Source of the DNA: Gemmatimonadales bacterium
GTDB lineage: Bacteria > Gemmatimonadota > Gemmatimonadetes > Gemmatimonadales > GWC2-71-9
Reading direction: 5' to 3'
Length of the DNA: 64,000 bases
Assembly (NCBI GenBank): GCA_035943095.1
Contig: DASZCN010000114.1
Span: 49,170-113,169 of the forward strand
Below the pieces are notes generated by a model. The model made no database searches. It was not told the DNA's origin and saw nothing but the letters and a program-made list of their open reading frames with translations. How positions within the stretch are numbered: the first letter of the stretch is position 1; each line of letters opens with the position of its first letter. Shown piece by piece: positions 7,221 through 51,522 of this stretch. The position numbers were made by a program, and so were the translations under genes.

Positions 7221-7903
7221 TACCTGCTCCTTCGCGTTGAGTGCCGCAACTGTTCCGCCTCGCGCTCGAGCTCTTGCACGAAGCTCGTCAGGGTATTCGC
7301 CATATCCTCCACCGCAGGCCGCGCTACGTCGGGTCGCTGGACCAGCTCGATGACCTCGTTCACCGCGGTGTCCAGGTCGTCGTTCACCAGCACCCGATCG
7401 TACACCCTTGCCAGCTCCTGCCGGGCCGTGTCGACTTCTCGCGTCGCGATCTCGATCCTCTTCCGGAGCTGCGCTTCCGACTCCGTCCGGCGGTCGCGCA
7501 GCCGCTCGATCAATACCCGAGGCGACGGCGGAATTACGAACACGATGAGCGATGCCGGACTCGGGTACGCCTGGCGCACCTGCCGCGCCCCCTGCACCTC
7601 CACATCGAGCAAGACGTGCTTGCCGCTCTTCAGCACGCGGTCGACTTCGTCCCGCAACGTACCGTACAGCTTGCCGGCGTACTGAGCCCACTCGAGGAAC
7701 TCGCCTGCCTGCCGGCGCCGCAGGAACTCTTCCCGCGTGAGGAAGTGGTACGCTTCCCCGTCCCGCTCTCCGGGTCTCGCCTTGCGCGTCGTCGCCGACA
7801 CGGAGTACCCGAAGACGTCCGGCAGCCGCGTCCTGATCTCGCGCGTGATGGTCGTCTTGCCGCCGCCGGACGGAGCGGCGAGCACGACCACCCGCGGCGT
7901 CAC
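7220..7903 (-). CDS. gmk: guanylate kinase
   Basis: This is the 3' 684 nt of track ORF 7220-8809. The start is GTG at 7903, forming GTGA with the yicC stop. It has the P-loop APSGGGKTT and SATTRKARPGERDGEAYHF. Confidence 0.9.
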   Translation of the reverse strand: MTPRVVVLAAPSGGGKTTITREIRTRLPDVFGYSVSATTRKARPGERDGEAYHFLTREEFLRRRQAGEFLEWAQYAGKLYGTLRDEVDRVLKSGKHVLLDVEVQGARQVRQAYPSPASLIVFVIPPSPRVLIERLRDRRTESEAQLRKRIEIATREVDTARQELARVYDRVLVNDDLDTAVNEVIELVQRPDVARPAVEDMANTLTSFVQELEREAEQLRHSTRRSR

Positions 7904-8781
7904 TCCAGATTCTCGAGCTGCTCCCGAAACTTCTCGAGCTCGCCTTTCATCGCGATCACGGTCAGCGAAATCACCGCGTCGTTGGCCTTCGAGCCGATCG
8001 TGTTCACCTCGCGCAGTAGCTCCTGCCCGAGGAACCCGAGTTGCTTCCCCACGGCCGCGTCCGTGGCCAGCGCCGCCCGGCATGCCGCCAGGTGCGTCCG
8101 GAGCCGCACCAGCTCCTCGGTGATGTCCACGCGGTCGGCCATCAGCGCCACCTCGACTGCGAGCCGCTGCTCGTCCACCTGTGCACCCCCCGCGAGCTCC
8201 GCGACGGCCTTTTTCAGGCGCGCGAGCTCCGCGACCAGGCGTTCCGGTGCGCGTTGCTCGACCGTTTGAGCGGCGGTCTCGAGCGCGGCCAGCCGCCTCT
8301 CGAGGTCGACTGCCAGGACCGCGCCCTCGCGCGACCGCATGGCCAACAGCGCCTGCGTCGCACGGTCCACGATCGGCTCCAGCTCGCTCCACTGCGCCGC
8401 CGCAGCCCCCGTTCCGTCCCGCTGGACGGTGAGCACATCGGCCTGCCGCGCGACGAACGCGAGGTCCACGTCGCCTTTGAGCTTGAGCCGCTGCTTCAGC
8501 TCCTTGGCGGCCGCCAGCACCTGACGCGCCCGCGCCAGATCCACGGTGACGGTCGCCTCTGACTGCGGCCCCTCCAACCAGCGCGCCGAGACCGTGACGT
8601 GGCCTCGCTCGAGCACCTGGCGCAGGCGCTCGCGCAGCGGACCCTCGATCCCGGTGAGCTCGAACGGCAGCTTGAGCTGCGGGTTGTAGTACCGGTGGTT
8701 CACGGTGCGGATCTCGATCGAGAGCCGCCCGCCGAGGACGTCCCCTTCGGCCGAACCGAAACCCGTCATGCTCCGCGGCAC
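7900..8781 (-). CDS. YicC/YloC family stress-induced protein
   Basis: 293 aa. The N-terminus MPRSMTGFG (GTG start) matches the family N-terminus M.RSMTG(F/Y)G. The C-terminal half is helical. Confidence 0.85.
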   Translation of the reverse strand: MPRSMTGFGSAEGDVLGGRLSIEIRTVNHRYYNPQLKLPFELTGIEGPLRERLRQVLERGHVTVSARWLEGPQSEATVTVDLARARQVLAAAKELKQRLKLKGDVDLAFVARQADVLTVQRDGTGAAAAQWSELEPIVDRATQALLAMRSREGAVLAVDLERRLAALETAAQTVEQRAPERLVAELARLKKAVAELAGGAQVDEQRLAVEVALMADRVDITEELVRLRTHLAACRAALATDAAVGKQLGFLGQELLREVNTIGSKANDAVISLTVIAMKGELEKFREQLENLE

Positions 8782-19649: not shown

Positions 19650-20224
19650 GCCAGTTGCTCCTTCAGTCGCTTGACGGCGTGGTGAAAATGCACTCGCGCG
19701 GCCCCGGGCGTGGTCCCGAGCGCCGCCGCAATCTCTTCGTATTCGAGCCCCTGTTGCGCCCGGAGCAAGAACACCTCACGCTGCATCCGGGGCAGTCGCC
19801 CCAGGCCGTCCGCCAGCCGCGCTTCCGTCTCGCCGGCCACGGCGTGCTCGTGCGGATCGCCGTCCGTATCTCGCAGCTCTTCCGCGAGCGGCACCACCCG
19901 TGCTCGACGGACCCGCCGGTACGCATCCTTCAGCACGTTCCCGCCGATCGTCATCAACCAGGTGCGAAACCGGCATTGGCCCCGGAACCGCCCGAGCGCC
20001 CGGAACGCTCGAATGAAGGTCTCCTGCACCAAATCGTCGACGTCTGCGTCCCCGCCCCCGCCCCGCCCCCCGCCCCCACCAGAGGCGCGCGCACCGAGGA
20101 ATCGGGCGAGCGCCCGCGCGTGACGGCGGACCAGCTCGGCTGCCGCTTGCTCGTCGCCGCCCTGCCAGGCGGCAATCAGCGCCGCATCGGTCGGGACGGC
20201 GGCGAGGGGCTCGGCGGGGGGCAT
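19646..20224 (-). CDS. ECF-type RNA polymerase sigma-70 family factor
   Basis: 192 aa. Region 2 is DDLVQETFIRAFRALGRFRG..FRTWLMTI and region 4 is LPRMQREVFLLRAQQGLEYEEIAAALGTTPGAARVHFHHA. It carries an unusual GGGGGRGGGG insert. Confidence 0.9.
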   Translation of the reverse strand: MPPAEPLAAVPTDAALIAAWQGGDEQAAAELVRRHARALARFLGARASGGGGGRGGGGDADVDDLVQETFIRAFRALGRFRGQCRFRTWLMTIGGNVLKDAYRRVRRARVVPLAEELRDTDGDPHEHAVAGETEARLADGLGRLPRMQREVFLLRAQQGLEYEEIAAALGTTPGAARVHFHHAVKRLKEQLA

Positions 20225-20262
20225 GCGTCGGAGGGTGGACGGTTGGGAGACGAGAATATTAA

Positions 20263-20306
20263 GGGTTGGGGAGGTTGGAGGAGGCTAGGGGACGTCCCCT
20301 AACCTT
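20263..20306. repeat. GGAGGTTGG-unit element (partial palindrome) in the divergent sigma/TetR intergenic region
   Basis: The sequence is gggttggggaggttggaggaggct-AGGGGACGTCCCCT-aacc. The centre is a perfect 14-bp palindrome (20287-20300). The C-rich arm is truncated. Confidence 0.6.
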
Positions 20307-20338
20307 GAATTCCCCGACGCCGGCCTGTAGCTTCCGAT

Positions 20339-20356
20339 TTCGAACGATCGTTCGAA
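20339..20356. promoter_or_regulatory. perfect 18-bp palindrome, candidate TetR operator
   Basis: TTCGAACGATCGTTCGAA ends 2 nt before the TetR ATG at 20359. Confidence 0.5.
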
Positions 20357-20358
20357 CT

Positions 20359-20964
20359 ATGCGCCCCTACGACGAGCGCCTCGATCAATTCCTGTCCCGA
20401 GCGGCGAGCGTCTTCGCCGACCAGGGATACCACTCGACCACGATGCGGGATCTGGCGGCAGCCACCGGCATGTCCCTCGCCGGCATGTATTACTACGTGC
20501 GGGGCAAGGAGGAGCTGCTGTACCGCATCCAGGAGCGCTGCTTCACGCAGGTGCTCGCGGGCGCCGAACAGGTGCTCGCCGGGCTGCGGGGCCACGACGT
20601 GGACGCGCTCGAGCGGCTGCAGGCGTTCATCCGGCACCACGTCGGGTTCTTCACGGCACACATGGCGGAGATGAAGGTCCTCTCGCACGAAGCGAACTCG
20701 CTCGGTGGCGAACGACTGCGCAAAGTGAGCGCGATCAAGCGACGGTACGTCGATTTGCTCGAGCGCTTGCTGCGCGACGTAGCCCCGGACGATCCGGCGG
20801 TGGAGCGCAGCGCCGCCGCCTACGTTCTGTTCGGCATGATGAACTGGATCTACAACTGGTACGACCCCACGGGCGAGATCGACCCCGAACGCCTGGCGGG
20901 ACTCATCGCGCGCATCTTCAGCGGCGGGTTTGCCGAGGCGCGTTCCACGGTACACGGAGGCTGA
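20359..20964 (+). CDS. TetR/AcrR family transcriptional regulator
   Basis: ATG at 20359 inside track ORF 20266-20964. The HTH is YHSTTMRDLAAATGMSLAGMYYYVRGKEELL. Confidence 0.9.
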   Translation: MRPYDERLDQFLSRAASVFADQGYHSTTMRDLAAATGMSLAGMYYYVRGKEELLYRIQERCFTQVLAGAEQVLAGLRGHDVDALERLQAFIRHHVGFFTAHMAEMKVLSHEANSLGGERLRKVSAIKRRYVDLLERLLRDVAPDDPAVERSAAAYVLFGMMNWIYNWYDPTGEIDPERLAGLIARIFSGGFAEARSTVHGG

Positions 20965-20970
20965 CGGCTC

Positions 20971-21786
20971 ATGGCGACGATGACGGAACCGAAAATCGAG
21001 ACCAAGACACTGGTGCACTATATGGTGGAAGGGGGCGTCGGGATCATCGAGCTCGACGATCCCCCGGCCAACACGTACACGTACGAGATGATGCGCCAGC
21101 TCGACGAGGCGATTCTCCGCGCGCGCTTCGACGAGAGCGTGCACGTCGTCGTGCTGCGCGGCCACGGGGACAAGTTTTTCTCCGCCGGCGCGAACATCGG
21201 GATGCTCAACACGGTGACGCCGCGCTTCAAATTCTTCTTCTGCCTGCACGCCAACGAGACGCTCAACCGCCTGGAGCAAACGCCCAAGCTCACGATTGCG
21301 GCACTCAACGGCCACACGGTGGGCGGCGGACTCGAGATCGCGATGGCGTGCGACATCCGCCTCGCCAAGGAGAACGCCGGCAAGATCGGCCTGCCTGAGG
21401 TGAATCTCGGCGTGCTCCCCGGAACGGGCGGGACCCAGCGGCTGGCGCGGCTCGTCGGCAAGGCCCGCGCGATCGAGCTGATGGCGAAGGGTGAGCTGTT
21501 TTCGTTCGACCGCGCCAAAGAGCTCGGCATCGTGCACGAGATCCTGCCGGCCAAGGAATTCTGGGAACAGGTCATGCTCTATGCCAATCAGTTCTGCCCG
21601 CCGCACAAGGCGTCGAAGGCGGTGGGCCTCATCAAGCGCTCGGTACAGACCGGCGCGGAGATCCCGTTCGAGTCGGCGCTGGCGCTCGAGCGCGAGCTGC
21701 AGCAGCAGCTGTTCCAGAGCGAAGACGCGAAGGAAGGGATCGCGGCCAACGTCGAGAAGCGCATGGCGGAGTTCAAGGGCCGGTGA
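20971..21786 (+). CDS. enoyl-CoA hydratase/isomerase (crotonase) family protein
   Basis: 271 aa with GDKFFSAGANI, GHTVGGGLEIAMACDIR and PEVNLGVLPGTGGTQRL. Confidence 0.9.
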   Translation: MATMTEPKIETKTLVHYMVEGGVGIIELDDPPANTYTYEMMRQLDEAILRARFDESVHVVVLRGHGDKFFSAGANIGMLNTVTPRFKFFFCLHANETLNRLEQTPKLTIAALNGHTVGGGLEIAMACDIRLAKENAGKIGLPEVNLGVLPGTGGTQRLARLVGKARAIELMAKGELFSFDRAKELGIVHEILPAKEFWEQVMLYANQFCPPHKASKAVGLIKRSVQTGAEIPFESALALERELQQQLFQSEDAKEGIAANVEKRMAEFKGR

Positions 21787-23210
21787 AGACCGACCTGCTC
21801 ATCGCGAACGAGTGGAAGAGCGCCCCTAAGCGCTACTGCCTCACGAACCCCGCGACGGAGGAGCCGCTCGCCGAGGTCGCCGAGGCGGGCGAGGCGGAGA
21901 TCGACGCCGCGGTGCAAGCGGCGCGCGCCTGCCTCGAGTCGAAACAGTGGCGCGAGCTCCCGGCCCGCCGGCGGGGCCAGCTGCTCTATCGGATCGCCGA
22001 ATTGCTCGAGGGGCGGTCCGGGCAGATCGCCGAGGTCGAGACCAAGAACAACGGGAAGCCGCTGTTCGAATCGAAGATCGACGTCGCAATGGCGATCGAG
22101 ACGTTCCGCTATTACGCCGGCTGGGCCGACAAGCTCACGGGCGACACGCTGCCCGTGAACGGCCCCTTCTTTACCTACACGTTGCGAGAGCCGGTGGGGG
22201 TGGTGGGCGCGATCGTGCCATGGAACTTCCCGTTGAACCTGGCGACGTGGAAGGTCGCCCCTGCCCTGGCCGCCGGGTGCACGGTGGTGCTCAAGCCGGC
22301 GCACGAGACGCCGCTCACCGCCCTGATGCTGGGGGAGATCGCGATCGAAGCCGGCCTGCCGCCCGGTGCCCTGAATGTCGTGCCCGGCCCCGGGGCGAGC
22401 GCGGGCGCCGCGCTCGTGCGCCACCCGCTGGTCGACAAGATTGCGTTCACAGGGTCCACCGAGGTCGGGCAATGGATCCAGCGGGAAGCGGCGGGGACGG
22501 TCAAACGCCTCACGCTCGAGCTCGGCGGCAAGAGCCCGAACATCATCTTCGCGGACGCGGATCTCTCGGCCGCGGTGCGGGGGGCCCAGAGCGGCATTTT
22601 CTACGGCAAGGGCGAAGTCTGCGCCGCTGGCTCCCGCCTCCTGGTCGAGCGCTCGGTGCACGACCAAGTGGTCGAGCAGCTCGCCGAGCGAGCCAAAAAG
22701 CTCACGCCCGGCGATCCCTTCGACAAGAACACGCGGCTCGGCGCCATCGTGTCCAAGCGACAGCAGGAGTCGGTGCTGTCCTACATTGCTGCGGGAACGA
22801 AGGACGGGGCCCGGCTCGTGGCCGGCGGCAAGGCCGCCAAGGTGAATGGGAAGGGCTTCTACGTCGAGGCGACGGTGTTCGACGGCGCCGCACCCGGGAT
22901 GAAGATCGTGGACGAGGAAATCTTCGGCCCCGTATTGGCGGTGCTCACGTTCGAGAACGAAGCCGAAGGCATCGAGCTCGCCAACCGCTCGCGGTACGGA
23001 CTCGCGGCGGGCGTCTGGACCAAGGACGTGCAGAAGGCCCACCGTGTAGCCCGCGCGATCAAGGCGGGCACCGTCTGGGTGAACACGTACAACTTCTACG
23101 ATCCCGCGGCGCCGTTCGGCGGCTACAAGTTCTCGGGGTTTGGGCGGGACCTGGGACGGGAAGCGCTCGACCACTATACGGAGACCAAGACGGTTTGGGT
23201 GGGGCTGTGA
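21783..23210 (+). CDS. NAD(P)-dependent aldehyde dehydrogenase
   Basis: 475 aa with a GTG start overlapping the upstream stop. It has FTGSTEVG, ELGGKSP and the catalytic Cys in GEVCAAGSR. Confidence 0.92.
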   Translation: MKTDLLIANEWKSAPKRYCLTNPATEEPLAEVAEAGEAEIDAAVQAARACLESKQWRELPARRRGQLLYRIAELLEGRSGQIAEVETKNNGKPLFESKIDVAMAIETFRYYAGWADKLTGDTLPVNGPFFTYTLREPVGVVGAIVPWNFPLNLATWKVAPALAAGCTVVLKPAHETPLTALMLGEIAIEAGLPPGALNVVPGPGASAGAALVRHPLVDKIAFTGSTEVGQWIQREAAGTVKRLTLELGGKSPNIIFADADLSAAVRGAQSGIFYGKGEVCAAGSRLLVERSVHDQVVEQLAERAKKLTPGDPFDKNTRLGAIVSKRQQESVLSYIAAGTKDGARLVAGGKAAKVNGKGFYVEATVFDGAAPGMKIVDEEIFGPVLAVLTFENEAEGIELANRSRYGLAAGVWTKDVQKAHRVARAIKAGTVWVNTYNFYDPAAPFGGYKFSGFGRDLGREALDHYTETKTVWVGL

Positions 23211-23248
23211 GGACGGTAGAAGACGGTAGAGGACGGTAGAGGACGGTA
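23209..23248 (+). repeat. 4 x 10-bp tandem repeat GA(G/A)GACGGTA filling the ALDH-thiolase spacer
   Basis: The sequence is gaggacggta gaagacggta gaggacggta gaggacggta. It starts inside the TGA stop (23208-23210) and ends in the ATG (23248-23250). Three of the four units carry a GAGGA Shine-Dalgarno core; the second unit reads GAAGA. Confidence 0.9.
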
Positions 23249-24438
23249 TGAGCGATCGCGAAGCGTACATCTGCGCCGCGTTGCGCACGCCCGTGGGGAA
23301 ACATGGGGGAGCCTTGGCGTCCGTCCGGGCGGATGATCTGGCCGCGATTCCGATCAAGGCGATGGTCGAGCGCTCCGGGATCGATCCGTCCACCATCGAC
23401 GACGTGATCCTCGGGTGTACGAACCAGGCGGGCGAGGATAACCGCAACGTGGCGCGCATGGCCCTGCTCCTCGCGGGCCTGCCGGTCGACGTCCCGGGCC
23501 AAACCGTGAATCGGCTGTGCGGGTCGGGGCTGCAGGCGGCCGCGAGCGCGGCGCAGGCGATCAAGGCGGGCGAAGGCGAGGTCTTTATCGCCGGCGGCGT
23601 CGAGAACATGACCCGCGCACCCTACGTGACGCTGAAGTCGGGCGAGGCGTGGAGCCGTAAGGCGCCCGAGACGGCGGATACCACTGTAGGATGGCGCTTC
23701 ACCAATCCTCGACTCAAGAAAGAGTGGACCATCGCACTGGGCGAGACCGCCGAAGTGGTGGCGGAGCGCTACAAGATCACCCGCGCCGAGCAGGATGCAT
23801 TCGCGGTCGAGAGCCAGCGACGGGCCGAGGTCGCGCTCAAGGCGTGCGTCTTTACCGACGAGCTCGTGGCCGTCCCCCTCCCCGACGGGACGACGTTCGC
23901 CAAGGACGAGTACCCGCGCTCGGGCGTGACGCTCGAGAGCGTCGCGAAGCTCAAGCCGGCGTTCCGTCCAGATGGTACTGTGACCGCCGCCACGTCGAGT
24001 GGCATCAACGACGGCGCGGCAGCATTGCTCCTGGCGGGGGACGTTGGAGGAGGACGGGGGAGGCTGACGCCGATTGCGCGTGTGATTGCGACGGCTGTCG
24101 CGGGCGTCGATCCGAGCTGCATGGGGCTCGGGCCGATTCCGGCCACCCAGAAGGTGTTGAAGCGGGCGAGCATGAAGATCGACCAGATCGACCTGATCGA
24201 GCTCAACGAGGCGTTCGCGGCCCAGGCGATCGCCTGCATTCGCGAGCTCAAGCTCGACCCGGCCAGGGTGAACATCTATGGCGGCGCGATCGCGCTGGGG
24301 CATCCCTTGGGTGCGACCGGCGCGAGAATCTTGACGACGCTGGTACACGCCCTCCGTCGCACCAACTCGCGCTACGGTCTCGCGACGATGTGCATCGGCG
24401 TGGGACAAGGAATCGCGATGCTCGTGGAGCGCGCTTGA
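23248..24438 (+). CDS. acetyl-CoA C-acyltransferase (thiolase II, 3-oxoadipyl-CoA-thiolase-like)
   Basis: 396 aa with VNRLCGSGLQA (active Cys), NEAFAAQ, GGAIALGHPLGATG and CIGVGQG. Confidence 0.93.
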   Translation: MSDREAYICAALRTPVGKHGGALASVRADDLAAIPIKAMVERSGIDPSTIDDVILGCTNQAGEDNRNVARMALLLAGLPVDVPGQTVNRLCGSGLQAAASAAQAIKAGEGEVFIAGGVENMTRAPYVTLKSGEAWSRKAPETADTTVGWRFTNPRLKKEWTIALGETAEVVAERYKITRAEQDAFAVESQRRAEVALKACVFTDELVAVPLPDGTTFAKDEYPRSGVTLESVAKLKPAFRPDGTVTAATSSGINDGAAALLLAGDVGGGRGRLTPIARVIATAVAGVDPSCMGLGPIPATQKVLKRASMKIDQIDLIELNEAFAAQAIACIRELKLDPARVNIYGGAIALGHPLGATGARILTTLVHALRRTNSRYGLATMCIGVGQGIAMLVERA

Positions 24439-25196
24439 TGGCCGCCTACGATCGGGTACTCGTCGAAATCGTGAATGGCATCGGGACGGTCACCTTGAAC
24501 CGGCCCGAGAAGCTCAATGCGCTGGATCGGGCGCTCTGCGACGACCTGCGCGAGGCACTCACCATGCTCACTACGAGCGACGGTGTGCGCGTCGTGGTGA
24601 TCACGGGGGCGGGCCGCGCCTTCTGTGCCGGCGCGGACCTCGACGTTCTCGGGGCGGACGGGCCGGCGCTGGTCGCCGCCGGGAAGGAGGTAGCGCTCGC
24701 GCTCCGCGCGGCGCCGCAGCCGGTGCTCGCCGTGGTGAACGGACCGGCCGCGGGAGGCGGGGCGAACCTCGCCCTTGCCTGCGACTACCGGATCGCGTCC
24801 GAACACGCGTCGATCGGACAAGTGTTCGCCAAGCTCGGGCTGGTCCCCGATTGGGGCGGCTCGTTCTTCCTGCCACGCCTTGTGGGGCCCTCCAAGGCGC
24901 TCGAGCTGGTCTGGAGCGCGCGCATGGTGCCCGCCGCTGAGGCGCTGGCGCTCGGGCTGTTCGATCGCGTCGTGCCACACGGTGAGCTGCACACGGAGGC
25001 CCGTCGCCTCGGCGAGCTGTGGGCCGGACACCCGGCGGGCGCCGTGCGACGGGCCAAGGAAGCCCTGTACCGAAGCGACGCCAGCTCCCTCGGATCGATG
25101 CTCGATCTCGAGATCAGGCAGCAGACCGAACTCTTTGCCTCCCCCGAAGCGCGCGAGCGCATCGAGGGAGCGTCACTCGCCAAGAGGAGCCGCTGA
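24438..25196 (+). CDS. enoyl-CoA hydratase/isomerase family protein
   Basis: ATG at 24438 (TGATG junction) inside track ORF 23691-25196. It has GAGRAFCAGADLD and GPAAGGGANLALACDYR. Confidence 0.9.
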   Translation: MAAYDRVLVEIVNGIGTVTLNRPEKLNALDRALCDDLREALTMLTTSDGVRVVVITGAGRAFCAGADLDVLGADGPALVAAGKEVALALRAAPQPVLAVVNGPAAGGGANLALACDYRIASEHASIGQVFAKLGLVPDWGGSFFLPRLVGPSKALELVWSARMVPAAEALALGLFDRVVPHGELHTEARRLGELWAGHPAGAVRRAKEALYRSDASSLGSMLDLEIRQQTELFASPEARERIEGASLAKRSR

Positions 25197-26320
25197 TGGT
25201 TCGCAAACTGAACAACTTCGACGAATGGATCGACTACTTCCGCTACTGGCAGGACTCGATCGGCCTGCCCCAGGGCGAGATCCGGAGCTTCAAGTTCGAG
25301 GCCAAGTTCGGCGATCCGGAAGTGCCGCACATCGAGTTCGGTCATTACAAGGGCCAGCGGAAGTGGCCCACGGTGATGCACATTCCCGACCAGCGCATCC
25401 GCGACGCGCTGCTCAACCTCATCGTCTATCAGGGCGACACCGAATTCGCGTCCGTGGAGCAGCAGCGCAGCCTGTTGACGCACGCCCCCTCGGACTACGA
25501 TCTCTTGGCGCTGATGCGCGTGATGACTGAAGAGATGCGGCACGGGTGGCAGATGTCCTACCTGCTGTGCACGCACTTTGGGGACGAAGGCAAGCGCGAG
25601 GCGGCCAAGCTGCTCGAGCGCCGCGCCGACGACGGCGAACGGCTGCTCGGCTCCTTCAACGAGCTGGTCGACAACTGGCTCGATTTCTTCACGTACACGC
25701 AGTTCATCGATCGGGATGGAAAGTTCCAGCTCACCATGCTCTCGGTTTCCGCATTCGACCCGTTGTCGCGCTCGATGAACCCCATGCTCAAGGAGGAATC
25801 CTTCCACCTCGGCACCGGCAACAACGGGCTGCTCCGCATCGTGAAGGCCGGCAAGATGCCTCCCGAGGTGATCCAGCGCTTCTTCTATAAGTGGATTCCG
25901 ACGGCGTTCGACCTGTTCGGCACGGATAATTCGTCGTCGGCGCACTGGGCATACGTATGGGGCCTGAAGGGCCGCTACGACGAGCGTGAGCACCAGACCG
26001 AGCCGGACAAGGCGAAGCTGAACGAGCTGAGCCGGGAGCTGTACCGGCAGGAGATTGCGAAGCTGATCGAGCGCCTCAACATGTTCATCCCCGAGCGCGA
26101 TCGCTGGCTGCGGGTACCCGATACGAAATTCAACCGCAGGATCGGCGTCCACGCACACCAGCGGTACACAGTCGACGGCCAGCCGATCGACGACCCGACG
26201 AAATACACGGCGTATCTCACCACCGTCTTGCCTCAGCCCGAGCATTACGAGACGGTGCGCGGCATCGAGAAAGAGCCGGGCTGGATCGAGGCGAAGAAGG
26301 CGGATAGCCTGCTCAAGTGA
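25196..26320 (+). CDS. BoxB-like di-iron oxygenase (benzoyl-CoA oxygenase component B family), short form
   Basis: ATG at 25196 (TGATG) inside track ORF 25019-26320. It has QGDTEFASVEQQRSL, MTEEMRHGWQMSYLL, FIDRDGKFQL and LKEESFHLGTG, giving an E / ExxH / D / ExxH ligand pattern and strong resemblance to BoxB as I recall it. Confidence 0.75.
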   Translation: MVRKLNNFDEWIDYFRYWQDSIGLPQGEIRSFKFEAKFGDPEVPHIEFGHYKGQRKWPTVMHIPDQRIRDALLNLIVYQGDTEFASVEQQRSLLTHAPSDYDLLALMRVMTEEMRHGWQMSYLLCTHFGDEGKREAAKLLERRADDGERLLGSFNELVDNWLDFFTYTQFIDRDGKFQLTMLSVSAFDPLSRSMNPMLKEESFHLGTGNNGLLRIVKAGKMPPEVIQRFFYKWIPTAFDLFGTDNSSSAHWAYVWGLKGRYDEREHQTEPDKAKLNELSRELYRQEIAKLIERLNMFIPERDRWLRVPDTKFNRRIGVHAHQRYTVDGQPIDDPTKYTAYLTTVLPQPEHYETVRGIEKEPGWIEAKKADSLLK

Positions 26321-27015
26321 CCCTTGTCATCGCGCACCGGGGCGCGTCGGGCTACGAGTACGAGAACTCGCGGGCTGCGTTCCGGGCAGCCCGCGCCCGC
26401 GGCGCCGACGCGATCGAGCTGGACATCCACGCCGCCGCGGACGGCGTGCCGTTCGTGCACCATGACGAGGTCGTGAGCGGCACGCACATCACGCGCTCGA
26501 GCGCCGCGCAGGTGCGCTCCCTGCGACTGCCGAACGGCGAGTCCATCCCGACGCTCGAGGACGCCCTGGGCGTGATCGATCGGGCGCTGCAGGTCTTCAT
26601 CGAGGTCAAATCCCTGCCGCCGCAATTCGACGATCAGTTGTTTGCGGCGCTGGACAGCCCGGCGGGAGCGGGGTCAGGGGGCGGGACGCGCTGCGCCGTC
26701 CACGCGTTCGACCATCGGATCGTGCAGCGGCTCGGGCTCGCGCGCCCGGCCCTGGTGCGGGGCGTACTGTTGGCCTCCTATCCGCTCCGACCCCTGGAGG
26801 CGCTCCAGGACACCGGCGCCACCGTGCTGTGGCAGGAGCAGAGTCTCATCGACGCGGCGTTGGTCGACGCGCTGCATGGCGCGGGCTACCGGATCCACGC
26901 CTGGACCGTAAACGATCCTGAAGACATGCGAACCCTGCTCGGGCTCCACGTGGATGGACTGTGCACCAACGCTCCAGATGTGGGCCGGCACGCCGTCCAA
27001 CAGGGGCCGGGATGA
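26317..27015 (+). CDS. glycerophosphodiester phosphodiesterase family protein
   Basis: 232 aa with a GTG start (GTGA junction). It has IAHRGASGYEYENSRAAF and ELDIHAAADGVPFVHHDE. Confidence 0.85.
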   Translation: MTLVIAHRGASGYEYENSRAAFRAARARGADAIELDIHAAADGVPFVHHDEVVSGTHITRSSAAQVRSLRLPNGESIPTLEDALGVIDRALQVFIEVKSLPPQFDDQLFAALDSPAGAGSGGGTRCAVHAFDHRIVQRLGLARPALVRGVLLASYPLRPLEALQDTGATVLWQEQSLIDAALVDALHGAGYRIHAWTVNDPEDMRTLLGLHVDGLCTNAPDVGRHAVQQGPG

Positions 27016-27869
27016 GCGCCGGTCGTGTGGCGGTGATTGGCGCGGGCACGATGGGGCACGGGATCGCCTACGCCGCGGCCCTTGCGGGCTTCGAGGTGCG
27101 GCTCACCGACAGCAAGCCGGATGCGCTGCGCCTCGCCATGGGGCGCCTAAACGACCTCCTGGCGATCGCCGTGCGCCGCGGGAAGCTCACCGAACCCGAT
27201 CGGGACGCCGCCTCGACCCGGCTGCACGCGGAGGCGGACTTCGCGCCGGCGGTGCTCGAGGCGGACGTCGTGATCGAGGCCGTGCGCGAGCACCTGGGCA
27301 CCAAACAGCAGGTCTTCGCGGAGGTCGAGCGGGCGGCGCCGGCGAGCGCGCTGCTCGCGACGAACACCTCCTCACTCTCCGTGACCGCGATCGCCGCCGC
27401 CGTGCAGGACCCCGCCCGCGTGCTCGGCATGCACTTTTTCAATCCGGTGCACGCGATGAAGCTCGTCGAGGTGGTGACGCATCCGCAGACGGCGTCCCAG
27501 TCCGTCGAGCGGGCGGTGACGTTCGCCAAGGCTCTCGGGAAGGAGCCGATCGTGGTGAAGGATTCTCCGGGCTTCGCGTCCAGCCGCCTGGGCGTCGCGC
27601 TCGGTCTCGAAGCGATGCGGATGCTCGAGGAAGGCGTCGCATCCGCCGAGGACATCGACAAGGCGATGGAGCTCGGCTACAACCACCCGATGGGGCCGCT
27701 CAAGCTCACGGACATGGTCGGCCTCGACGTCCGCCTGGCGATCGCCGAGTATCTGTTCCAGGCGCTCGACGACCGCCGCTTCGAGCCCCCCCAGATCCTC
27801 CGCGACAAGGTCGCCCGAGGGGAGCTCGGCCAAAAGAGCGGAAAAGGGTTCTACAACTGGAGCGCGTGA
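27012..27869 (+). CDS. 3-hydroxyacyl-CoA / 3-hydroxybutyryl-CoA dehydrogenase
   Basis: ATG at 27012 (ATGA) inside track ORF 26961-27869. It has VIGAGTMGHGIA, LATNTSSLS, and HFFNPV followed by M.LVEV. Confidence 0.92.
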   Translation: MSAGRVAVIGAGTMGHGIAYAAALAGFEVRLTDSKPDALRLAMGRLNDLLAIAVRRGKLTEPDRDAASTRLHAEADFAPAVLEADVVIEAVREHLGTKQQVFAEVERAAPASALLATNTSSLSVTAIAAAVQDPARVLGMHFFNPVHAMKLVEVVTHPQTASQSVERAVTFAKALGKEPIVVKDSPGFASSRLGVALGLEAMRMLEEGVASAEDIDKAMELGYNHPMGPLKLTDMVGLDVRLAIAEYLFQALDDRRFEPPQILRDKVARGELGQKSGKGFYNWSA

Positions 27870-27894
27870 AAGGCCGCGGCGGCTCACCTCGCGG

Positions 27895-29346
27895 TCACGT
27901 GCCCGAACAGATCCTTGGACCCCCCGTCTGCGTCGCGATGGCCGTGTGATCGTCCTGCCCGTCGTTCCCCGGCTGGTCGTCGCTGTACGTAATGGACGCG
28001 AGCCCCGTCGTTGGGGACACGGCGATCCCGAAGTCGTCGAATAGGTCCCGGTTCCCCGTGCACGATACCCCGCCCTCGCACACTCCGCCGAAGTGGATGA
28101 TGGGAGTGGCCGCGACCTGCGTGAACTTGCTGCCCACCGTCGTCGCGTTCTTGTTCTGCGCAAAGAAGACATACCACGCCGCGGACGCCGGATAGTTGTC
28201 TGGCGCGCTCCCGTCGAAGAACGAGGTCCCGTACCACACGATGTTCAGCTCGCCGGGAGCGCACGCCACGCTCCAGGGAAAGATCGCCGTGGCGGACGGG
28301 GGCTGGTTCACCTGGATCGGGCCGGTCCAGGTGAGTCCGCTGTTGGTCGAAAAGCTGTAGAACATATTGTGATTGTCGTTGTACACGACGTACACCGTCC
28401 CGGCCCGGTCCACGGTCGCGTTGATGAACTGATGCCCGTACGAGACGGAGGCGTCCGGATTCACATAGACGGTTTGGTCGGTGAAGGTCTGACCGCCGTC
28501 GCGCGAAATGGCGATCCAAACGGCATGGAAGTTGGTTGGAACGACGGCCTCGACGGCGTTGGCGATGCCGCTGAACACCTGATAGATGACGTGGCTATTC
28601 GGGTCGATCGTGAGGTTGCCGGTCGAGTTCTCCTCGAGCAGGAACGCGTGCGCGGCGTCGATCGCCGACCCTGGCTGTAGGAAGCTGGCGCCCGCGTCGA
28701 AGCTGCAATTGACGTCGATGTTGAATGTCACGATGTCGTGGTACGAGATGCAGACCTTGGTCGCCTGGTCGGCCGCGATCCACTCGCGGTCGTCGCCCGG
28801 AACGGTGGCGCTGAGGACGTTCTTGCTCCAGGTCTTGCCACCGTCCTGGCTGGTCGAGACCGTGACGTTTGCGAGACTCAGGCTCGCCACGTAGACGTTG
28901 TGGACGCCGCTCGCGTTTGCTTGGGGCGCGACACCGAGATCGGTGTCACCGCCCCCCGTTGCCAGGCCCCCGGCCGCCTGCGAGATCTGGTTCGGGGATA
29001 GGAGCGCCGTGTAATGCAGCCCACCGTCAGTCGATTTCCAGGCGAGCGTCCCAGCGGCAAGGCCGAGCTCGGAGGAGACGTAGAACGTTCCCGTGGCGTC
29101 CGCGCGAATCGCGGGTTCTGCGGCGCCGTTGGTGCAGCCCGACGCGCCGGGGCAGACCGTGCCGGGCGCGGCGCCAAGCTCGAAGGTGGTAAACGCGAAC
29201 GGTCCCCCGGTGACCGACTGCGCGGCATTCACGCGGCCCGCCGTCGCGGGTGACCCAAGCGACCTACCGTCGTCGCAGGACGTCATGAGCACTACGCAGG
29301 CAAGCACGACTACCGTGGCGATCGCGCGCTGCAGGTCGGTCCTCAC
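27895..29346 (-). CDS. BNR/Asp-box repeat (sialidase-like beta-propeller) lipoprotein
   Basis: 483 aa with lipobox LMTSC. The Asp-boxes are STDGGLHYT, SQDGGKTWS, SRDGGQTFT and STNSGLTWT. Confidence 0.8.
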   Translation of the reverse strand: MRTDLQRAIATVVVLACVVLMTSCDDGRSLGSPATAGRVNAAQSVTGGPFAFTTFELGAAPGTVCPGASGCTNGAAEPAIRADATGTFYVSSELGLAAGTLAWKSTDGGLHYTALLSPNQISQAAGGLATGGGDTDLGVAPQANASGVHNVYVASLSLANVTVSTSQDGGKTWSKNVLSATVPGDDREWIAADQATKVCISYHDIVTFNIDVNCSFDAGASFLQPGSAIDAAHAFLLEENSTGNLTIDPNSHVIYQVFSGIANAVEAVVPTNFHAVWIAISRDGGQTFTDQTVYVNPDASVSYGHQFINATVDRAGTVYVVYNDNHNMFYSFSTNSGLTWTGPIQVNQPPSATAIFPWSVACAPGELNIVWYGTSFFDGSAPDNYPASAAWYVFFAQNKNATTVGSKFTQVAATPIIHFGGVCEGGVSCTGNRDLFDDFGIAVSPTTGLASITYSDDQPGNDGQDDHTAIATQTGGPRICSGT

Positions 29347-42134: not shown

Positions 42135-43355
42135 CTAGTCGACGAGATCTCCCAGCAGCTGCCTCGCAATCACGATTCGCTGGATCTCACTCGTCCCCTC
42201 CCCGATCTCGCAGATCTTGGCGTCGCGCATCATGCGCTCGACCGGGTAGTCGGTGGTGTAGCCATAGCCGCCGTGCAGCTGGACCGCCTTGGTGGTGGCG
42301 CGCATGGCGAGCTCCGAAGCGTAGAGCTTGGCCATCGCGGCCTCCTTCTTGAACGGCCGGCCCTGCTGCTTGAGCCACGCGGCGTGGTACACGAGGTGTG
42401 TGGCCGCCTCGATCTCGGTGGCCATGTCGGCGAGCGCGAAGTGGACGCCCTGGAAGGCGGCTATCGGCTTGCCGAATTGCCGCCGAGTCGTCGTGTAGCG
42501 CAGGCACTCTTCGAGCGCGCCTTCCGCGATCCCTAGCGCCAGCGCGCCCAGACCGATTCGGCCACCGTCGAGCGTATGGAGGAACTGCCGGAACCCATTG
42601 TTCACGGGTCCCAGGACGTTTTCCTTGGGGACGATCGCGTCCTGGAAGACCAGCTCGCGCGTATCCGACGCCCGCCAGCCGAGCTTGTCCTCCTTTTTCG
42701 CCGCCGCTACGCCGCGGCACTTGGGGAGAGAGGCCTCGTGGCCGACCCCGACGCGCTTCGCTTCCTCGAGGTCGGTCGTGTCCTTCGTGACGATGAATGC
42801 GGTGATCCCGTGCGTTTTCTGCGCTGCGGGATCGGTGCGGGCGGTCACGACGAAGATCTCGCCGACGCCGGCGTGGGTGATGAAGATCTTCGAGCCGTTC
42901 AGGACGTAGTGATCCCCCTGCTCTTCCGCCATCGTGCGGGTGCCCCCGGCATCCGACCCGGCGCCCGGCTCGGTGAGGCCGAACCCGCCCAGCACTTTGC
43001 CAGCGGCGAGCAGCGGCACGAATCTCCTCTTTTGCTCATCCGTTCCAAAATCCACAATGGGCGACGTGCCGAGCGTCGTGTGGGCGCTGATCGTGATGGC
43101 GTGGCTCGCATCGACCTTGGCGAGCTCGTGAATCACCATGATGTATGACAGGTAGTCCATGCCGCTGCCGCCCAAATGCTCTGGCCAGGGAATACCGAAC
43201 AGCCCCAGGTCGGCCATCTGACGCACGTTGTCCCACGGGAACGTGCTGTCGAGGTCGTGGCGACGGGCGCTGGGCTTCACGACCTGTTGCGCGAAGTCGC
43301 GCACCATGTCGCGCACTTGGAAATGATGATCGGTGAAATAGAGGGAGTCGTGCAT
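42135..43355 (-). CDS. acyl-CoA dehydrogenase
   Basis: 406 aa with [24 protein letters not shown] and [15 protein letters not shown]. Confidence 0.93.
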
Positions 43356-43452: not shown

Positions 43453-46164
43453 TTACCCCGTGGTCCCAAACCCCGCCGCGATGCAATTGATCGACATCAG
43501 GAGCGCGGCCAGGTGGTCCTGGGCCTGTTCCGGCGGCGCGGCGCGATAGCGACGCAGTAGCTCGATCTGCTGGCGGTTCACCTGATTGAGTGTCGGGAGG
43601 CGGCGCGCGAGCCGCTGGCGGAACTGGGGGAATCGCTCGGCGAGCCCCGCGCACCCGGTGAGGCGGCGCACGACGTCCAGCGTGCGATGGTACTCGTCCG
43701 TCACGAGCGTGAAGATTTCCTGGCGCACCCAGGGGTCCGCTACGAGGTCGGCGTACTGGCGGGCCAGCTCGAGATCCACATAGGCGAGCGTCTTTTCGGC
43801 CTCGTCCACGATCAGCCGAAACAGGCGGAAGTCGTTGAACATCCGTTTGAGCAGCGCCTCCCCGCGTGCGCCGCGGACTTCGAGAAAGGTTGCCACACCC
43901 GTTCCGACGCCGAACCACCCGGGAATGAAGTGCCGGTTCTGGGTCCAGGCGAACACCCACGGAATCGCACGCAGATCAGCCAGCGTCCGCACGCCGGTAC
44001 GGCGCGCGGGCCGCGACCCAATGTTCAAGAGCGCGATTTCCTCCACCGGGCTCGCGGCCTGAAAGTATGTCACGAGGTGCGGGTGCTCGACGACGCGGCG
44101 GTAGGCGGCGTGCGCGGCGCCCGACAACGCTTCCATCGCCTCGTCGAACTCGGTGGTGGGGACGAGCGCCTCCTCCCGCTCGGACTTGAGCGAATGCTCG
44201 AGGACGCTCGCCGCCAGGAGCTCGGTCTGGTACGCCGCGGTGCCGCGGTTGGCGTACTTGAATGACACGACCTCGCCCTGCTCGGTGAGGCGCAATCGGC
44301 CCTGGATGGATCCGGCCGGCTGGGCCGCGATCGCGCGTCCCGTGGGCGCGCCTCCCCGGCTGACGGAGCCGCCGCGGCCGTGGAAGAACGCGATCGGCAC
44401 GCCGCACTCCCGTCCCAGGCGTGTGAGTCGGAGCTGCGTCTTGGCAAGCTCCCAGTTAGAAGACAGGAAGCCACCGTCCTTATTCGAGTCCGAGTAGCCG
44501 ATCATCACTTCGAACACTCCGCCCTGCGCCCGGACGCTGCGACGCACGAGCGGCACCTGGAGGAGCTCGCGCATGATGTCGGGCGCCCGGCGCAGATCGT
44601 CGATGGATTCGAACAGTGGGACGATCGGGAGCGTACAGCTCTCCGTGCCCGCCGCGTCTGCGAAGAGGCCTGCGTGCTTGGCCAGGAGGTGGACACCCAG
44701 CACGTCCGCCGCGTCGTGCGTCATGCTGAGGACAAAGCTCCCGATCGCTTCGCGGTCGAGCCGGTCGCGCATCTCATGGATGAGCTGGAAGAGGCCGCAC
44801 AGCTCCGCGGCTTCCGGTGGTGGCGCGGCACGATCTCCCTGCAGGGGGCGGCCCAGCTCGGTCACGAGCCAGGCGCGCCAGGCGGCCGATGTTGGTTCCG
44901 GGAGGGGGGGCTCGCCGGGATGGCGCGCGCGCCACAACGCCGCCAGGGCCGCGGTCACGCGGGGTGAGTTATCCCGTACGTCGAGCCGGAACGTGCTGAA
45001 CCGGAAGGCTTCGACCTCACGGCGCAGCGGCCGCACCAGGAGATTCGCGACGGTGGCACAGCCTGCGGCGATCAGGCCCGCCTCGAGCGTGCGCAAGTCC
45101 GCGACGAGCTCGTCGGCCGTCGCGTACCCGCCGTGACCCGCCTCGCTCGCCAGCGCCTGGTCCAGCCGGCGAAGCATGCAGGTCGCGTATTGCCGGAAGA
45201 CCTCACCCGGGTTGCGCCGCTGGATGCGCTCCGCGTCGCCCGACTCGGCGAGCAGACGGTTCAGCGCGTCACGAAACTGCGGTGCGATCGGCGTCGCCCG
45301 CTCGGTCGGACTCAACGCCCGGAGAAGGTCGCCGAGGCGCTGGCGATACCGCCGCAGGCTGGCCGTCCGGTTTTCCAGCAGCGTGCGGCGCGTGACATCG
45401 TTCGTGACGAAGGGATTGCCGTCCCGGTCGCCACCGATCCACGAGCCGAACTGGAAGAACGGCGGCACGTCGTATTGCTCTTCCGGATAGGCCTGCCGCA
45501 GGGCGCGCTCGAGCTTTTCCACCAGCTCGGGGACGACCTCAAAGAGATTCTCGTTGACGAAGTACAGCCCCCAGGCGAGCTCCTGGTCCACGGTAGGCTT
45601 CTCGAGGCGTAGCTCGCCGCTGAGCCACAACAGCTCGATCTCGGTCCGGAGATTGTCCACGAGGGCGGTGCGCTCCCGCGGGGTCCACCGCGGGGTCTCG
45701 AGATCCACCAATCGCCGATAGATGCGGCGATGCTTCTCGAGCACGGTCACGCGCTTGGCCTCGGTGGGGTGCGCCGTGATCACGGGCCGCACGCGCAGAC
45801 TGGCGACCAAGGCGCGCACTTCTTGCGGTGCGAGGCCCGCCCGTGCGGCGGACGAGACCACGTGTGCGAACGTCCCCCGGACTTGCTCGTGGCCGCGCTC
45901 GACCTCGCTCTGGCGTCGCTGGCGCATCGCGGCGTTCTGCTCCGCGATGGACAGCAGCTGGAACCACATCCCCTGGGCTTGAATGGCTCGAGCCACGAGG
46001 TCGGGTGGCGCGCCCGCATCGAGCGGCTCGCCCTGGAGCACGCGCTCGATCTCCGGATGGTGCGTGCGAATGACGTCGAGAAGGCAATCGTGCAGCAGAC
46101 CCGCCGTGCCTCTCAGGTACTCGGCGGTGTCGACGAGGACGAAGGCAGCCGCGGGTGACGTCAC
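43453..46164 (-). CDS. ppc: phosphoenolpyruvate carboxylase
   Basis: 903 aa with VITAHPTEAKR, GYSDSNKDGG, and a C-terminal ...AAGFGTTG. Confidence 0.95.
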   Translation of the reverse strand: MTSPAAAFVLVDTAEYLRGTAGLLHDCLLDVIRTHHPEIERVLQGEPLDAGAPPDLVARAIQAQGMWFQLLSIAEQNAAMRQRRQSEVERGHEQVRGTFAHVVSSAARAGLAPQEVRALVASLRVRPVITAHPTEAKRVTVLEKHRRIYRRLVDLETPRWTPRERTALVDNLRTEIELLWLSGELRLEKPTVDQELAWGLYFVNENLFEVVPELVEKLERALRQAYPEEQYDVPPFFQFGSWIGGDRDGNPFVTNDVTRRTLLENRTASLRRYRQRLGDLLRALSPTERATPIAPQFRDALNRLLAESGDAERIQRRNPGEVFRQYATCMLRRLDQALASEAGHGGYATADELVADLRTLEAGLIAAGCATVANLLVRPLRREVEAFRFSTFRLDVRDNSPRVTAALAALWRARHPGEPPLPEPTSAAWRAWLVTELGRPLQGDRAAPPPEAAELCGLFQLIHEMRDRLDREAIGSFVLSMTHDAADVLGVHLLAKHAGLFADAAGTESCTLPIVPLFESIDDLRRAPDIMRELLQVPLVRRSVRAQGGVFEVMIGYSDSNKDGGFLSSNWELAKTQLRLTRLGRECGVPIAFFHGRGGSVSRGGAPTGRAIAAQPAGSIQGRLRLTEQGEVVSFKYANRGTAAYQTELLAASVLEHSLKSEREEALVPTTEFDEAMEALSGAAHAAYRRVVEHPHLVTYFQAASPVEEIALLNIGSRPARRTGVRTLADLRAIPWVFAWTQNRHFIPGWFGVGTGVATFLEVRGARGEALLKRMFNDFRLFRLIVDEAEKTLAYVDLELARQYADLVADPWVRQEIFTLVTDEYHRTLDVVRRLTGCAGLAERFPQFRQRLARRLPTLNQVNRQQIELLRRYRAAPPEQAQDHLAALLMSINCIAAGFGTTG

Positions 46165-49230: not shown

Positions 49231-49233
49231 GGG

Positions 49234-51467: not shown

Positions 51468-51487
51468 AAGACACGTCCTCGAGAAAG

Positions 51488-51522
51488 GAGAAAAACAAAG
51501 CGAGAACCGCCGGCTCTCGCTT
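51488..51522 (-). terminator. rho-independent terminator after recQ
   Basis: On the minus strand the stem aagcgaga/tctcgctt (8 bp, 9-nt loop) is followed by TTGTTTTTCTCC. It sits in an AT-richer patch between recQ and the aminotransferase. Confidence 0.65.

Follow-up and report, generated by a model that had tools for sequence, protein, structure and literature searches.

The window analysed here, a stretch of 64,000 nucleotides from a Gemmatimonadales bacterium, contains an operon in which a 374-residue protein related to BoxB, the oxygenase component of benzoyl-CoA epoxidase, is encoded together with enzymes of coenzyme A (CoA) ester metabolism. Eight genes are tightly packed on the + strand, with overlapping start and stop codons at five of the junctions, and the BoxB-like gene is the sixth of them. 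The genes, in order, are:

20359–20964, + strand: TetR regulator (Pfam TetR_N and TetR_C_24), the first gene of the conserved block
20971–21786, + strand: crotonase ECH1, 271 residues (Pfam ECH_1, 180 bits; best NCBIfam matches all below cut-off)
21783–23210, + strand: NAD(P)-dependent aldehyde dehydrogenase (Pfam Aldedh, 601 bits), in the functional position of BoxD
23248–24438, + strand: 3-oxoadipyl-CoA-type (PcaF/PaaJ) thiolase (Pfam Thiolase_N and Thiolase_C)
24438–25196, + strand: crotonase ECH2, 252 residues (Pfam ECH_1, 192 bits), translationally coupled to the BoxB-like gene
25196–26320, + strand: compact BoxB-type di-iron protein, putative benzoyl-CoA 2,3-epoxidase oxygenase component (PF05138, TIGR03225, AlphaFold2 and Foldseek)
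26317–27015, + strand: GDPD-family phosphodiesterase (Pfam GDPD, 113 bits), with an intact N-terminal HRG motif
27012–27869, + strand: 3-hydroxyacyl-CoA dehydrogenase (3HCDH_N, 215 bits; 3HCDH, 110 bits), in the functional position of PaaH and the last gene of the operon

The reading frame of the BoxB-like protein runs from the ATG at 25196 to the stop at 26320, and the start ATG overlaps the stop of the upstream crotonase gene (TGATG). Both the 374-residue frame and its embedding in a beta-oxidation-type, CoA-ester operon agreed with a preliminary description of this sequence, and the start was supported by the N-terminus MVRKL/MxRI..FD.W, which is common to hundreds of homologues. The GC content at third codon positions (GC3) was 0.84, and the codon-position GC of the gene was that of real genes in this window of 64–72% GC. 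A long antisense open reading frame (ORF) at 24785–26245 was rejected as a high-GC artefact. The identical sequence is deposited at NCBI as HEV2751467.1, 'Phenylacetic acid catabolic protein [Gemmatimonadales bacterium]', and members of the compact family are named there only 'Phenylacetic acid catabolic protein' or 'PaaI'. The JGI names of its cluster-mates are 'benzoyl-CoA 2,3-dioxygenase component B' or 'benzoyl-CoA 2,3-epoxidase subunit B'.

Di-iron site, pocket and fold of the compact protein

The 374-residue protein is predicted from its sequence to be a BoxB-type di-iron oxygenase that is intact and catalytic. The metal ligands of BoxB are Glu120, Glu150, His153, Asp211, Glu240 and His243 (PMC5489048). 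Residues were mapped through a 475-residue canonical BoxB (numbering offset +2) and a ten-sequence alignment, and the counterparts of all six ligands in the sequence alignments were E83, E113, H116, D172, E201 and H204, which were invariant across an alignment of 146 family members. The preliminary description had quoted four motifs and derived from them an E/ExxH/D/ExxH di-iron ligand set; the motifs were located at residues 79 (QGDTEFASVEQQR), 110 (MTEEMRHGW), 172 (DRDGKFQL) and 198 (LKEESFHLG), and the ligand set was confirmed by the alignment of six out of six BoxB ligands. Degraded metal sites were present in the wider family: five of the six ligands are missing from P0189, and His116 is replaced by Gln in P0136. 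These two may be PaaC-like non-catalytic paralogues inside the compact BoxB family, and the P0189-type sequences are distinct from the 374-residue protein, which keeps all six ligands.

The benzoyl site of BoxB is shaped by Gln116, Thr119, Ser123, Phe193, Phe203/206 and Thr210, and Thr210 is implicated in regio- and stereo-selectivity (PMC5489048). The residues Q79, T82, S86 and F154, corresponding to BoxB Q116, T119, S123 and F193, were invariant in the 146 short forms, and F164 (BoxB F203) was kept in 142 of them. Thus the Q, T, S, F and F of the second shell were kept, while Phe206 was changed to Tyr and Thr210 to Ile or Val family-wide. Including these two, the residues by which the family differs from BoxB at pocket or near-pocket positions were F84 for Pro121, G117 for Leu154, Q119 for Ala156, Y167 for Phe206 and I/V171 for Thr210.

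The protein matched Pfam PF05138 (PaaA_PaaC; 52.5 bits, gathering score 28.5). The BoxB model TIGR03225 was its best NCBIfam model (217.5 bits, in three stretches), and the PaaA model TIGR02156 gave 45.6 bits against a cut-off of 280. The closest solved relative by sequence was Azoarcus evansii BoxB 3PER (E 5e-50), followed by SSO1313 (4MUD, E 1e-15) and then PaaA (about 1e-5). Identity was about 37–39% to canonical BoxB and about 23% to PaaA.

The preliminary description had also suggested a structure prediction, and the one made here pointed to a BoxB fold over the whole chain. The AlphaFold2 model, made from the 146-member alignment, had a mean predicted local distance difference test score (pLDDT) of 95.0 and a predicted template modelling score (pTM) of 0.91. 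In Foldseek it matched every BoxB chain of the Protein Data Bank (PDB) at full length, with a query-normalized template modelling score (TMq) of 0.87–0.89, a root-mean-square deviation of 2.5–3.7 Å and E about 1e-22 (E 3e-22 at a TMq of 0.88); the matches to 3PM5, which is BoxB with bound benzoyl-CoA, and to 3Q1G had a TMq of 0.88–0.89, with 0.88 for 3PM5. The next-best folds, SSO1313 and PaaA, reached a TMq of only about 0.5, and no short-form structure was found in the Foldseek library of solved structures.

The protein was estimated in the preliminary description to be about 100 residues shorter than BoxB, with shortening at both termini. The estimate was right, since the compact form has 106 residues fewer, and the placement was mostly wrong, since most of the missing residues are internal. 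In an alignment that was otherwise end to end, 106 residues of BoxB and 5 residues of the 374-residue protein had no counterpart. The BoxB-only residues, by position in the compact protein, were distributed as follows:

N-terminal end: 18
after residues 32 and 40: 4 + 21
after residue 144: 2
after residue 217: 19
after residue 263: 23
after residue 301: 2
after residues 359–361: 7
C-terminal end: 10

The terminal shortening (about 28 residues, about 18 at the N-terminal end and about 10 at the C-terminal end) was less than one third of the length difference. Since the PaaA outgroup, in an alignment that is weak near the ends, likewise lacks all the large BoxB-only segments, insertions in canonical BoxB are favoured over deletions in the short form, and the internal segments look like canonical-BoxB insertions rather than losses from a truncated BoxB.

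Family, operon neighbours and genomic contexts

In a word-indexed search, 7159 proteins scored at E ≤ 1e-5. Among these, the top 120, a set that includes a few fragments or mis-extended ORFs, were 68–94% identical to the 374-residue protein, mostly 365–390 residues long, and almost all from metagenome-assembled genomes (MAGs) of Gemmatimonadota. An exhaustive search of 50%-identity representatives gave further clusters of about 350–385 residues at 39–62% identity (P0121, P0124, P0130, P0137, P0182), while canonical BoxB proteins of about 445–475 residues (P0162, P0169, P0243) reached only 41–45% identity over the matched stretches. With a profile built from distant short forms, members of 365–387 residues were retrieved from Acidobacteriota, Verrucomicrobiota, Planctomycetota, Zixibacteria, Eisenbacteria and others, and when one genome per species was scanned, at least 596 matched the compact family. 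The short forms with conserved neighbours that the preliminary description had anticipated thus constitute a large family of about 370 residues.

In a neighbour-joining tree rooted on PaaA, canonical BoxB was monophyletic in 98 of 100 bootstraps, with the 374-residue protein outside it, and the short forms appeared as a more diverse set of lineages around canonical BoxB. All short forms were monophyletic in 1 of 100 bootstraps, and a clade of the 374-residue protein with all context-typed short forms excluded BoxB in 15 of 100. Only the monophyly of BoxB is robust in this tree, and the PaaA rooting does not decide between a sister and an ancestral placement of the short forms. Of the phylogenetic check proposed earlier, a separate clade was supported for canonical BoxB. 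Together with the TIGR03225 score, the position outside the BoxB clade argues that the compact protein is not an ordinary member of a characterised BoxB subfamily.

Genomic contexts were sampled in 80 metagenomic loci, seven loci fetched by protein identity and loci from genomes outside Gemmatimonadota. Recurrent context types, A to D, tracked the protein tree. Type A is the Gemmatimonadota operon (TetR, crotonase, aldehyde dehydrogenase, thiolase, crotonase, BoxB-like protein, GDPD, 3-hydroxyacyl-CoA dehydrogenase), and its order was kept in Gemmatimonadota loci with BoxB-like proteins 64–95% identical to that of the window. In many of the Gemmatimonadota loci a third crotonase followed the dehydrogenase. 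The trio of TetR, crotonase and aldehyde dehydrogenase was kept in Gemmatimonadota, Acidobacteriota-type and Planctomycetota loci, and the core of this trio with a later crotonase and BoxB-like pair was also found in other phyla.

Type B, of Terriglobia/Acidobacteria-like loci, starts with TetR, crotonase, aldehyde dehydrogenase, in some cases a uracil-DNA-glycosylase-family (UDG-family) gene, crotonase, BoxB-like protein, CoA-transferase, crotonase, CoA-transferase and an ArsC-like gene, and continues with three molybdenum hydroxylase genes, an amidohydrolase, a 3-hydroxyacyl-CoA dehydrogenase and a macro-domain gene. The alpha subunit of the molybdenum enzyme scored 1000–1055 bits against the TIGR03194 equivalog cut-off of 994.55 and passed it in 7 of the 7 loci tested; for the beta and gamma subunits the 4-hydroxybenzoyl-CoA reductase models were best or near-best. 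By these scores the enzyme is a 4-hydroxybenzoyl-CoA reductase. This enzyme is known from anaerobic aromatic degradation, and its product is benzoyl-CoA. Its gamma, alpha and beta genes lie on the same strand as short forms 63–65% identical to the 374-residue protein (L078–L080; 64% for L078) and as those of metagenomic relatives, with the CoA-transferase subunits alongside. The presence of this reductase beside the BoxB-like gene implies a route coupling reductive dehydroxylation to an O2-dependent epoxidase. The pockets of the Type A and Type B proteins were the same except at I/V171 and Q/D169.

Several features of the Type B loci were observed in passing. The reductase genes stood directly downstream of the compact BoxB-like genes in L078 (11322–15915), L079, L122, L130, L140, L146, L151, L154, L156 and L160. 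A gene of the uracil-DNA-glycosylase superfamily, coding for about 175 residues, was located between the aldehyde dehydrogenase/crotonase genes and the crotonase/BoxB-like pair of Acidobacteriota-type operons (L078, 8509–9048; L079, L122, L125, L132, L146, L151, L152, L156, L161, L163–L165 and L167). The macro-domain gene closes the Acidobacteriota-type cluster and, with the UDG-family gene, is odd company for an aromatic CoA pathway.

In Type C, the BoxB-like gene is directly followed by genes for a thioredoxin-like [2Fe-2S] ferredoxin and a NuoF-like flavin mononucleotide/[4Fe-4S] protein (442 bits, nuoF_fam). The pair was found in 10 loci by ORF clustering and in 14–16 loci by tblastn, and by analogy it is plausibly a dedicated electron chain from NAD(P)H to the di-iron site, a functional counterpart of BoxA. 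Radical-SAM and GAF-PtsP genes precede the BoxB-like gene in these loci (L086/L087, 9131–10723; L091, L094, L096, L103, L104, L136 and others).

Near otherwise solitary BoxB-like genes, a fused E1-alpha/beta thiamine diphosphate-dependent 2-oxoacid dehydrogenase of about 700 residues was encoded a few genes away. A 30%-identical homologue of it adjoins paaE-paaA on a Saprospira plasmid, and the enzyme may be a feeder from aryl-2-oxoacids to aryl-CoA (L082, 16896–19076; L084, 12069–14168; L088, 10875–13013; L132; L169, 1–1533). On the Planctomycetota contig L085, crotonase and aldehyde dehydrogenase genes are followed by two small ORFs and then by the BoxB-like gene; these ORFs (7242–7987; 141 and 112 residues) had no Pfam match and could encode accessory or electron-transfer proteins. 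The 565-residue BoxB-like/GDPD fusion P0021, from a single cluster, was rejected as a Rosetta-stone link: its junction deletes the last approximately 25 BoxB-like residues and the first approximately 15 GDPD residues including HRG, and it is a deletion variant or an assembly artefact.

Within the operon of the window, the TetR protein had weak best NCBIfam matches to acyl-CoA/fatty-acid-type TetR regulators, and a TetR gene was upstream in 51 of the 80 genome loci and in 27 of the 87 other loci. Two short palindromes, at 20282–20305 (AGGCTAGGGGACG/CGTCCCCTAACCT) just upstream of the TetR start codon and at 20347–20360 (ATCGTTCGAACTAT) across it, are possible operator sites. A promoter and terminator scan of 20100–28100 was uninformative because its counts were not above the shuffled expectation. 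ECH1 is a candidate ring-opening hydrolase or dehydroadipyl-CoA hydratase by sequence, and it shared 39% identity over 181 residues with the N-domain of BoxC. A 'split BoxC' was rejected, BoxC being only 33rd among the PDB crotonases for ECH1 and ECH2 having no specific match. The aldehyde dehydrogenase, whose start overlaps the ECH1 stop and which was kept in 56 of the 80 loci, had a best NCBIfam match of StyD type (phenylacetaldehyde-dehydrogenase-type; 572 bits against a cut-off of 800). The best matches of the thiolase were both just below their cut-offs (NF006551, 550 bits, cut-off 605; TIGR02430 pcaF, 543 bits, cut-off 597). ECH2 gave below-cut-off matches to PaaG-like (173 bits) and 'oxepin_alt' (155 bits) models, and a crotonase directly upstream of the BoxB-like gene recurred across phyla.

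The GDPD gene is coupled on both sides, since its GTGA start overlaps the stop of the BoxB-like gene and its own stop overlaps the start ATG of the next gene. It occupied the same position in Gemmatimonadota (55 of the 80 genome loci), was absent from Acidobacteriota-type and NuoEF-type contexts, and has no obvious role in a CoA-ester pathway. The 3-hydroxyacyl-CoA dehydrogenase was kept in 56 of the 80 loci, and the gene after it (27895–29346) is on the opposite strand.

Farther along the window, a run of genes on the − strand at 43453–52776 resembles a serine-cycle/glyoxylate-assimilation set, with phosphoenolpyruvate carboxylase, a D-2-hydroxyacid dehydrogenase, succinyl-CoA-ligase-like (malate-thiokinase-like) alpha and beta subunits, an HpcH/citrate-lyase-beta-like (malyl-CoA-lyase-like) lyase and a class-V aminotransferase; an acyl-CoA dehydrogenase gene (42135–43355) adjoins it.

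Searches for partner proteins used tblastn. The BoxA query from Mycetohabitans had no match in the window or in 80 loci, and the BoxC query from the same source met only crotonase-level similarity there. Neither boxA nor boxC was found beside the compact gene in any of 167 related loci, and the Saprospira PaaB, PaaC, PaaD and PaaE queries had no match in the window or these 167 loci. The Mycetohabitans BclA query and queries with the NuoE/NuoF-like and CoA-transferase proteins of other clades gave nothing in the window or the Gemmatimonadota loci, with the sole exception of a weak benzoate-CoA ligase match (25% identity) in L059, and Pfam scans of 20 further proteins of the window gave no ferredoxin, reductase or aryl-CoA ligase. 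In Nonomuraea gerenzanensis (L170, 5740–9829), a canonical boxB of 62% identity has boxC 1 kb downstream and no boxA within 6 kb on either side. The absence of boxA in cis is thus weak evidence and not unique to the compact family. The protein had been described as stand-alone; indeed no genes for partner subunits were found, but this is not unusual, as BoxB too is a monomer that works without a structural subunit (PMC4498308).

Proposed function of the compact protein

We propose with moderate confidence that the 374-residue protein is the oxygenase component of a compact BoxB-type di-iron epoxidase, the substrate of which is most likely benzoyl-CoA, because the ring-positioning residues are kept, relatives cluster with a benzoyl-CoA-producing enzyme, and the operon contains every post-epoxidation enzyme type. 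By analogy with BoxB, the diferrous site would bind O2 and transfer one oxygen atom to C2–C3 of the CoA-bound ring, giving 2,3-epoxybenzoyl-CoA. One crotonase would open the ring hydrolytically to dehydroadipyl-CoA semialdehyde, the aldehyde dehydrogenase would oxidize the semialdehyde, and the second crotonase, the 3-hydroxyacyl-CoA dehydrogenase and the 3-oxoadipyl-CoA-type thiolase would lead to succinyl-CoA and acetyl-CoA. The two electrons per turnover would come from a reductase encoded elsewhere in the genome, and the TetR repressor probably controls the operon. In this scheme we infer what the substrate and the electron donor are, what each crotonase does and how the operon is regulated.

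Several results weigh against the proposal. The TIGR03225 score of 217.5 bits is below the equivalog cut-off of 499.1, and the five pocket or near-pocket positions F84, G117, Q119, Y167 and I/V171 are consistently non-BoxB across the family. Neither crotonase is specifically BoxC-like, and no BoxD/PaaN-type model was among the top 25 NCBIfam matches of the aldehyde dehydrogenase. No match to BoxA, PaaE, an NuoEF-like reductase, benzoate-CoA ligase or CoA-transferase was found in the 64-kb window. Type D genes are solitary, and many members of the family have no CoA-ester neighbours. The same gene set could also serve a phenylacetyl-CoA-type route. A literature search found no characterisation or assay of the compact clade, and MAG surveys mention benzoyl-CoA genes in Gemmatimonadota at annotation level only.

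The preliminary description had suggested that the protein represents a different substrate class of acyl-CoA epoxidase or oxygenase. Our results did not support this, as the BoxB ring-positioning residues are kept in all or nearly all of the 146 short forms and homologues of about 64% identity lie beside 4-hydroxybenzoyl-CoA reductase. Since the five positions consistently differ from BoxB, a changed specificity is possible, although we consider it rather unlikely that the protein is an epoxidase or hydroxylase for another CoA thioester (phenylacetyl-CoA, substituted benzoyl-CoA, or another aromatic or alicyclic one), with a re-shaped pocket, the same O2 chemistry and an operon that processes the ring-opened product. 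The family-specific invariance of those five residues and the score far below the BoxB cut-off are in line with such an enzyme, as are the resemblance of ECH2 to PaaG and 'alternative oxepin-CoA hydrolase' and the phenylacetaldehyde-dehydrogenase-type models of the aldehyde dehydrogenase. BoxB and PaaA are moreover reported to be strictly substrate-specific, so that small changes in the pocket could matter (PMC4498308). The third crotonase of many Gemmatimonadota loci is what a paa-type lower pathway would need, but the operon of the window has just two, and PaaB, PaaC, PaaD and PaaE were found neither there nor in the 167 loci. The protein is also far nearer to BoxB than to PaaA (217 against 46 bits; TM 0.88 against about 0.5), and the conserved ring-positioning residues and the repeated clustering with a true 4-hydroxybenzoyl-CoA reductase point to benzoyl-CoA.

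It is improbable that the main role lies outside ring epoxidation, whether in deoxygenating or detoxifying epoxides, in oxidizing or desaturating a non-aromatic CoA or acyl carrier protein ester, or as a di-iron housekeeping enzyme that just happens to share the Gemmatimonadota operon. In several lineages the gene is solitary among unrelated neighbours (L082, L083, L084, L088), translational coupling links it to a GDPD gene without evident relevance, and BoxB-type enzymes have been discussed as deoxygenating their own epoxide product (PMC5489048). However, the tight translational coupling in a coherent CoA-ester operon is kept over deep divergence, the core of crotonase, aldehyde dehydrogenase and BoxB-like genes extends to other phyla, and the benzoyl-binding residues are conserved. 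The lack of a reductase in cis in the Gemmatimonadota loci would also fit such a role, but the canonical Nonomuraea boxB likewise lacks a boxA within 6 kb. A remnant of BoxB (truncated, decaying or, like PaaC, non-catalytic), which the 100 missing residues and the existence of the ligand-less paralogues P0189 and P0136 might suggest, is effectively refuted by the intact and invariant ligands, the end-to-end alignment with BoxB, a length of 365–387 residues held in hundreds of species, the confident full-length model, the normal-gene GC3 of 0.84 and the absence of the BoxB-only segments from PaaA as well.

For the benzoyl-CoA epoxidase preferred here, a broader picture can be drawn tentatively. 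The compact form of about 370 residues would be ancestral and environmentally dominant, and would act in a box-type aerobic pathway without BoxA or BoxC, in which the electrons come from the NuoE/NuoF-like pair in one clade or from another donor in Gemmatimonadota, single-domain crotonases open the ring, and Acidobacteriota feed in 4-hydroxybenzoate via 4-hydroxybenzoyl-CoA reductase. In a stronger version, F84, G117, Q119, Y167 and I/V171 may shift the regiochemistry or substrate range from that of BoxB.

Comparison with known systems and significance

With Azoarcus evansii BoxB (3PER, 3PF7, 3PM5, 3Q1G; TIGR03225), the compact protein shares the ferritin-like fold over the whole chain, the E/ExxH/D/ExxH ligands, the benzoyl-positioning residues Q116, T119, S123, F193 and F203, a homologous C-terminal region and a single-subunit oxygenase without PaaB/PaaC-type partners. 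It differs from BoxB in having 106 residues fewer, with five BoxB-specific segments absent, in missing the equivalog cut-off, in the substitutions P121F, L154G, A156Q, F206Y and T210I/V, in lying outside the canonical clade, in a phylogenetically broader set of short forms, and in having no boxA or boxC beside its gene in the 167 loci. Filing it as an ordinary BoxB would be wrong, because it fails the curated model, does not belong to the canonical clade, has none of the BoxB-only segments and was seen beside boxA or boxC in none of the 167 loci. The operon resembles the box pathway (BclA, BoxA-D and beta-oxidation-like steps to 3-oxoadipyl-CoA) in its epoxidase, crotonase-family enzyme, aldehyde dehydrogenase, hydratase, 3-hydroxyacyl-CoA dehydrogenase and 3-oxoadipyl-CoA-type thiolase. 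However, it has two single-domain crotonases of about 250–270 residues for the 556-residue two-domain BoxC, an aldehyde dehydrogenase that is not of BoxD/PaaN type, no ligase or BoxA in the cluster and an inserted GDPD, and the Acidobacteriota-type loci are fed by 4-hydroxybenzoyl-CoA reductase and CoA-transferase.

PaaA of the PaaABC(D)E system (3PW1, 4IIT; TIGR02156) shares PF05138, the kind of di-iron site, a CoA-thioester substrate and the lower-paa-like downstream enzymes. Its identity of about 23%, a TM of about 0.5 and 45.6 bits against 280 set it apart, as do the absence of PaaB/C/D/E alongside the compact gene and the lack in PaaA of a counterpart of the BoxB-type C-terminal region shared by the short forms; by score, fold and absent partner subunits, the compact protein is not PaaA. 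SSO1313 of Sulfolobus solfataricus (4MUD, 235 residues), a structural genomics entry described as 'ring oxidation complex / phenylacetic acid degradation-related', was the second-best solved relative by both sequence and fold. It shares the four-helix di-iron core but covers only that core (residues about 53–223 of the compact protein) without the N- and C-terminal parts.

In gene-based surveys of aromatic degradation, 'boxB' is counted from automatic annotation, and the curated BoxB model is failed by the compact family, which is present in Gemmatimonadota, Acidobacteriota, Planctomycetota, Verrucomicrobiota and others. The family also offers a smaller natural scaffold for studying the dispensable parts of BoxB and the electron supply of such di-iron enzymes. 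For specialists in aromatic catabolism and di-iron enzymes, the interest lies mainly in how widely the family is spread among soil phyla, in the reductase module that differs from BoxA and in the association with 4-hydroxybenzoyl-CoA reductase. If the compact protein is an active benzoyl-CoA epoxidase, an O2-dependent CoA-thioester route for benzoate and 4-hydroxybenzoate would be widespread in poorly cultured soil phyla, and it would use accessory enzymes other than those of the textbook box pathway.

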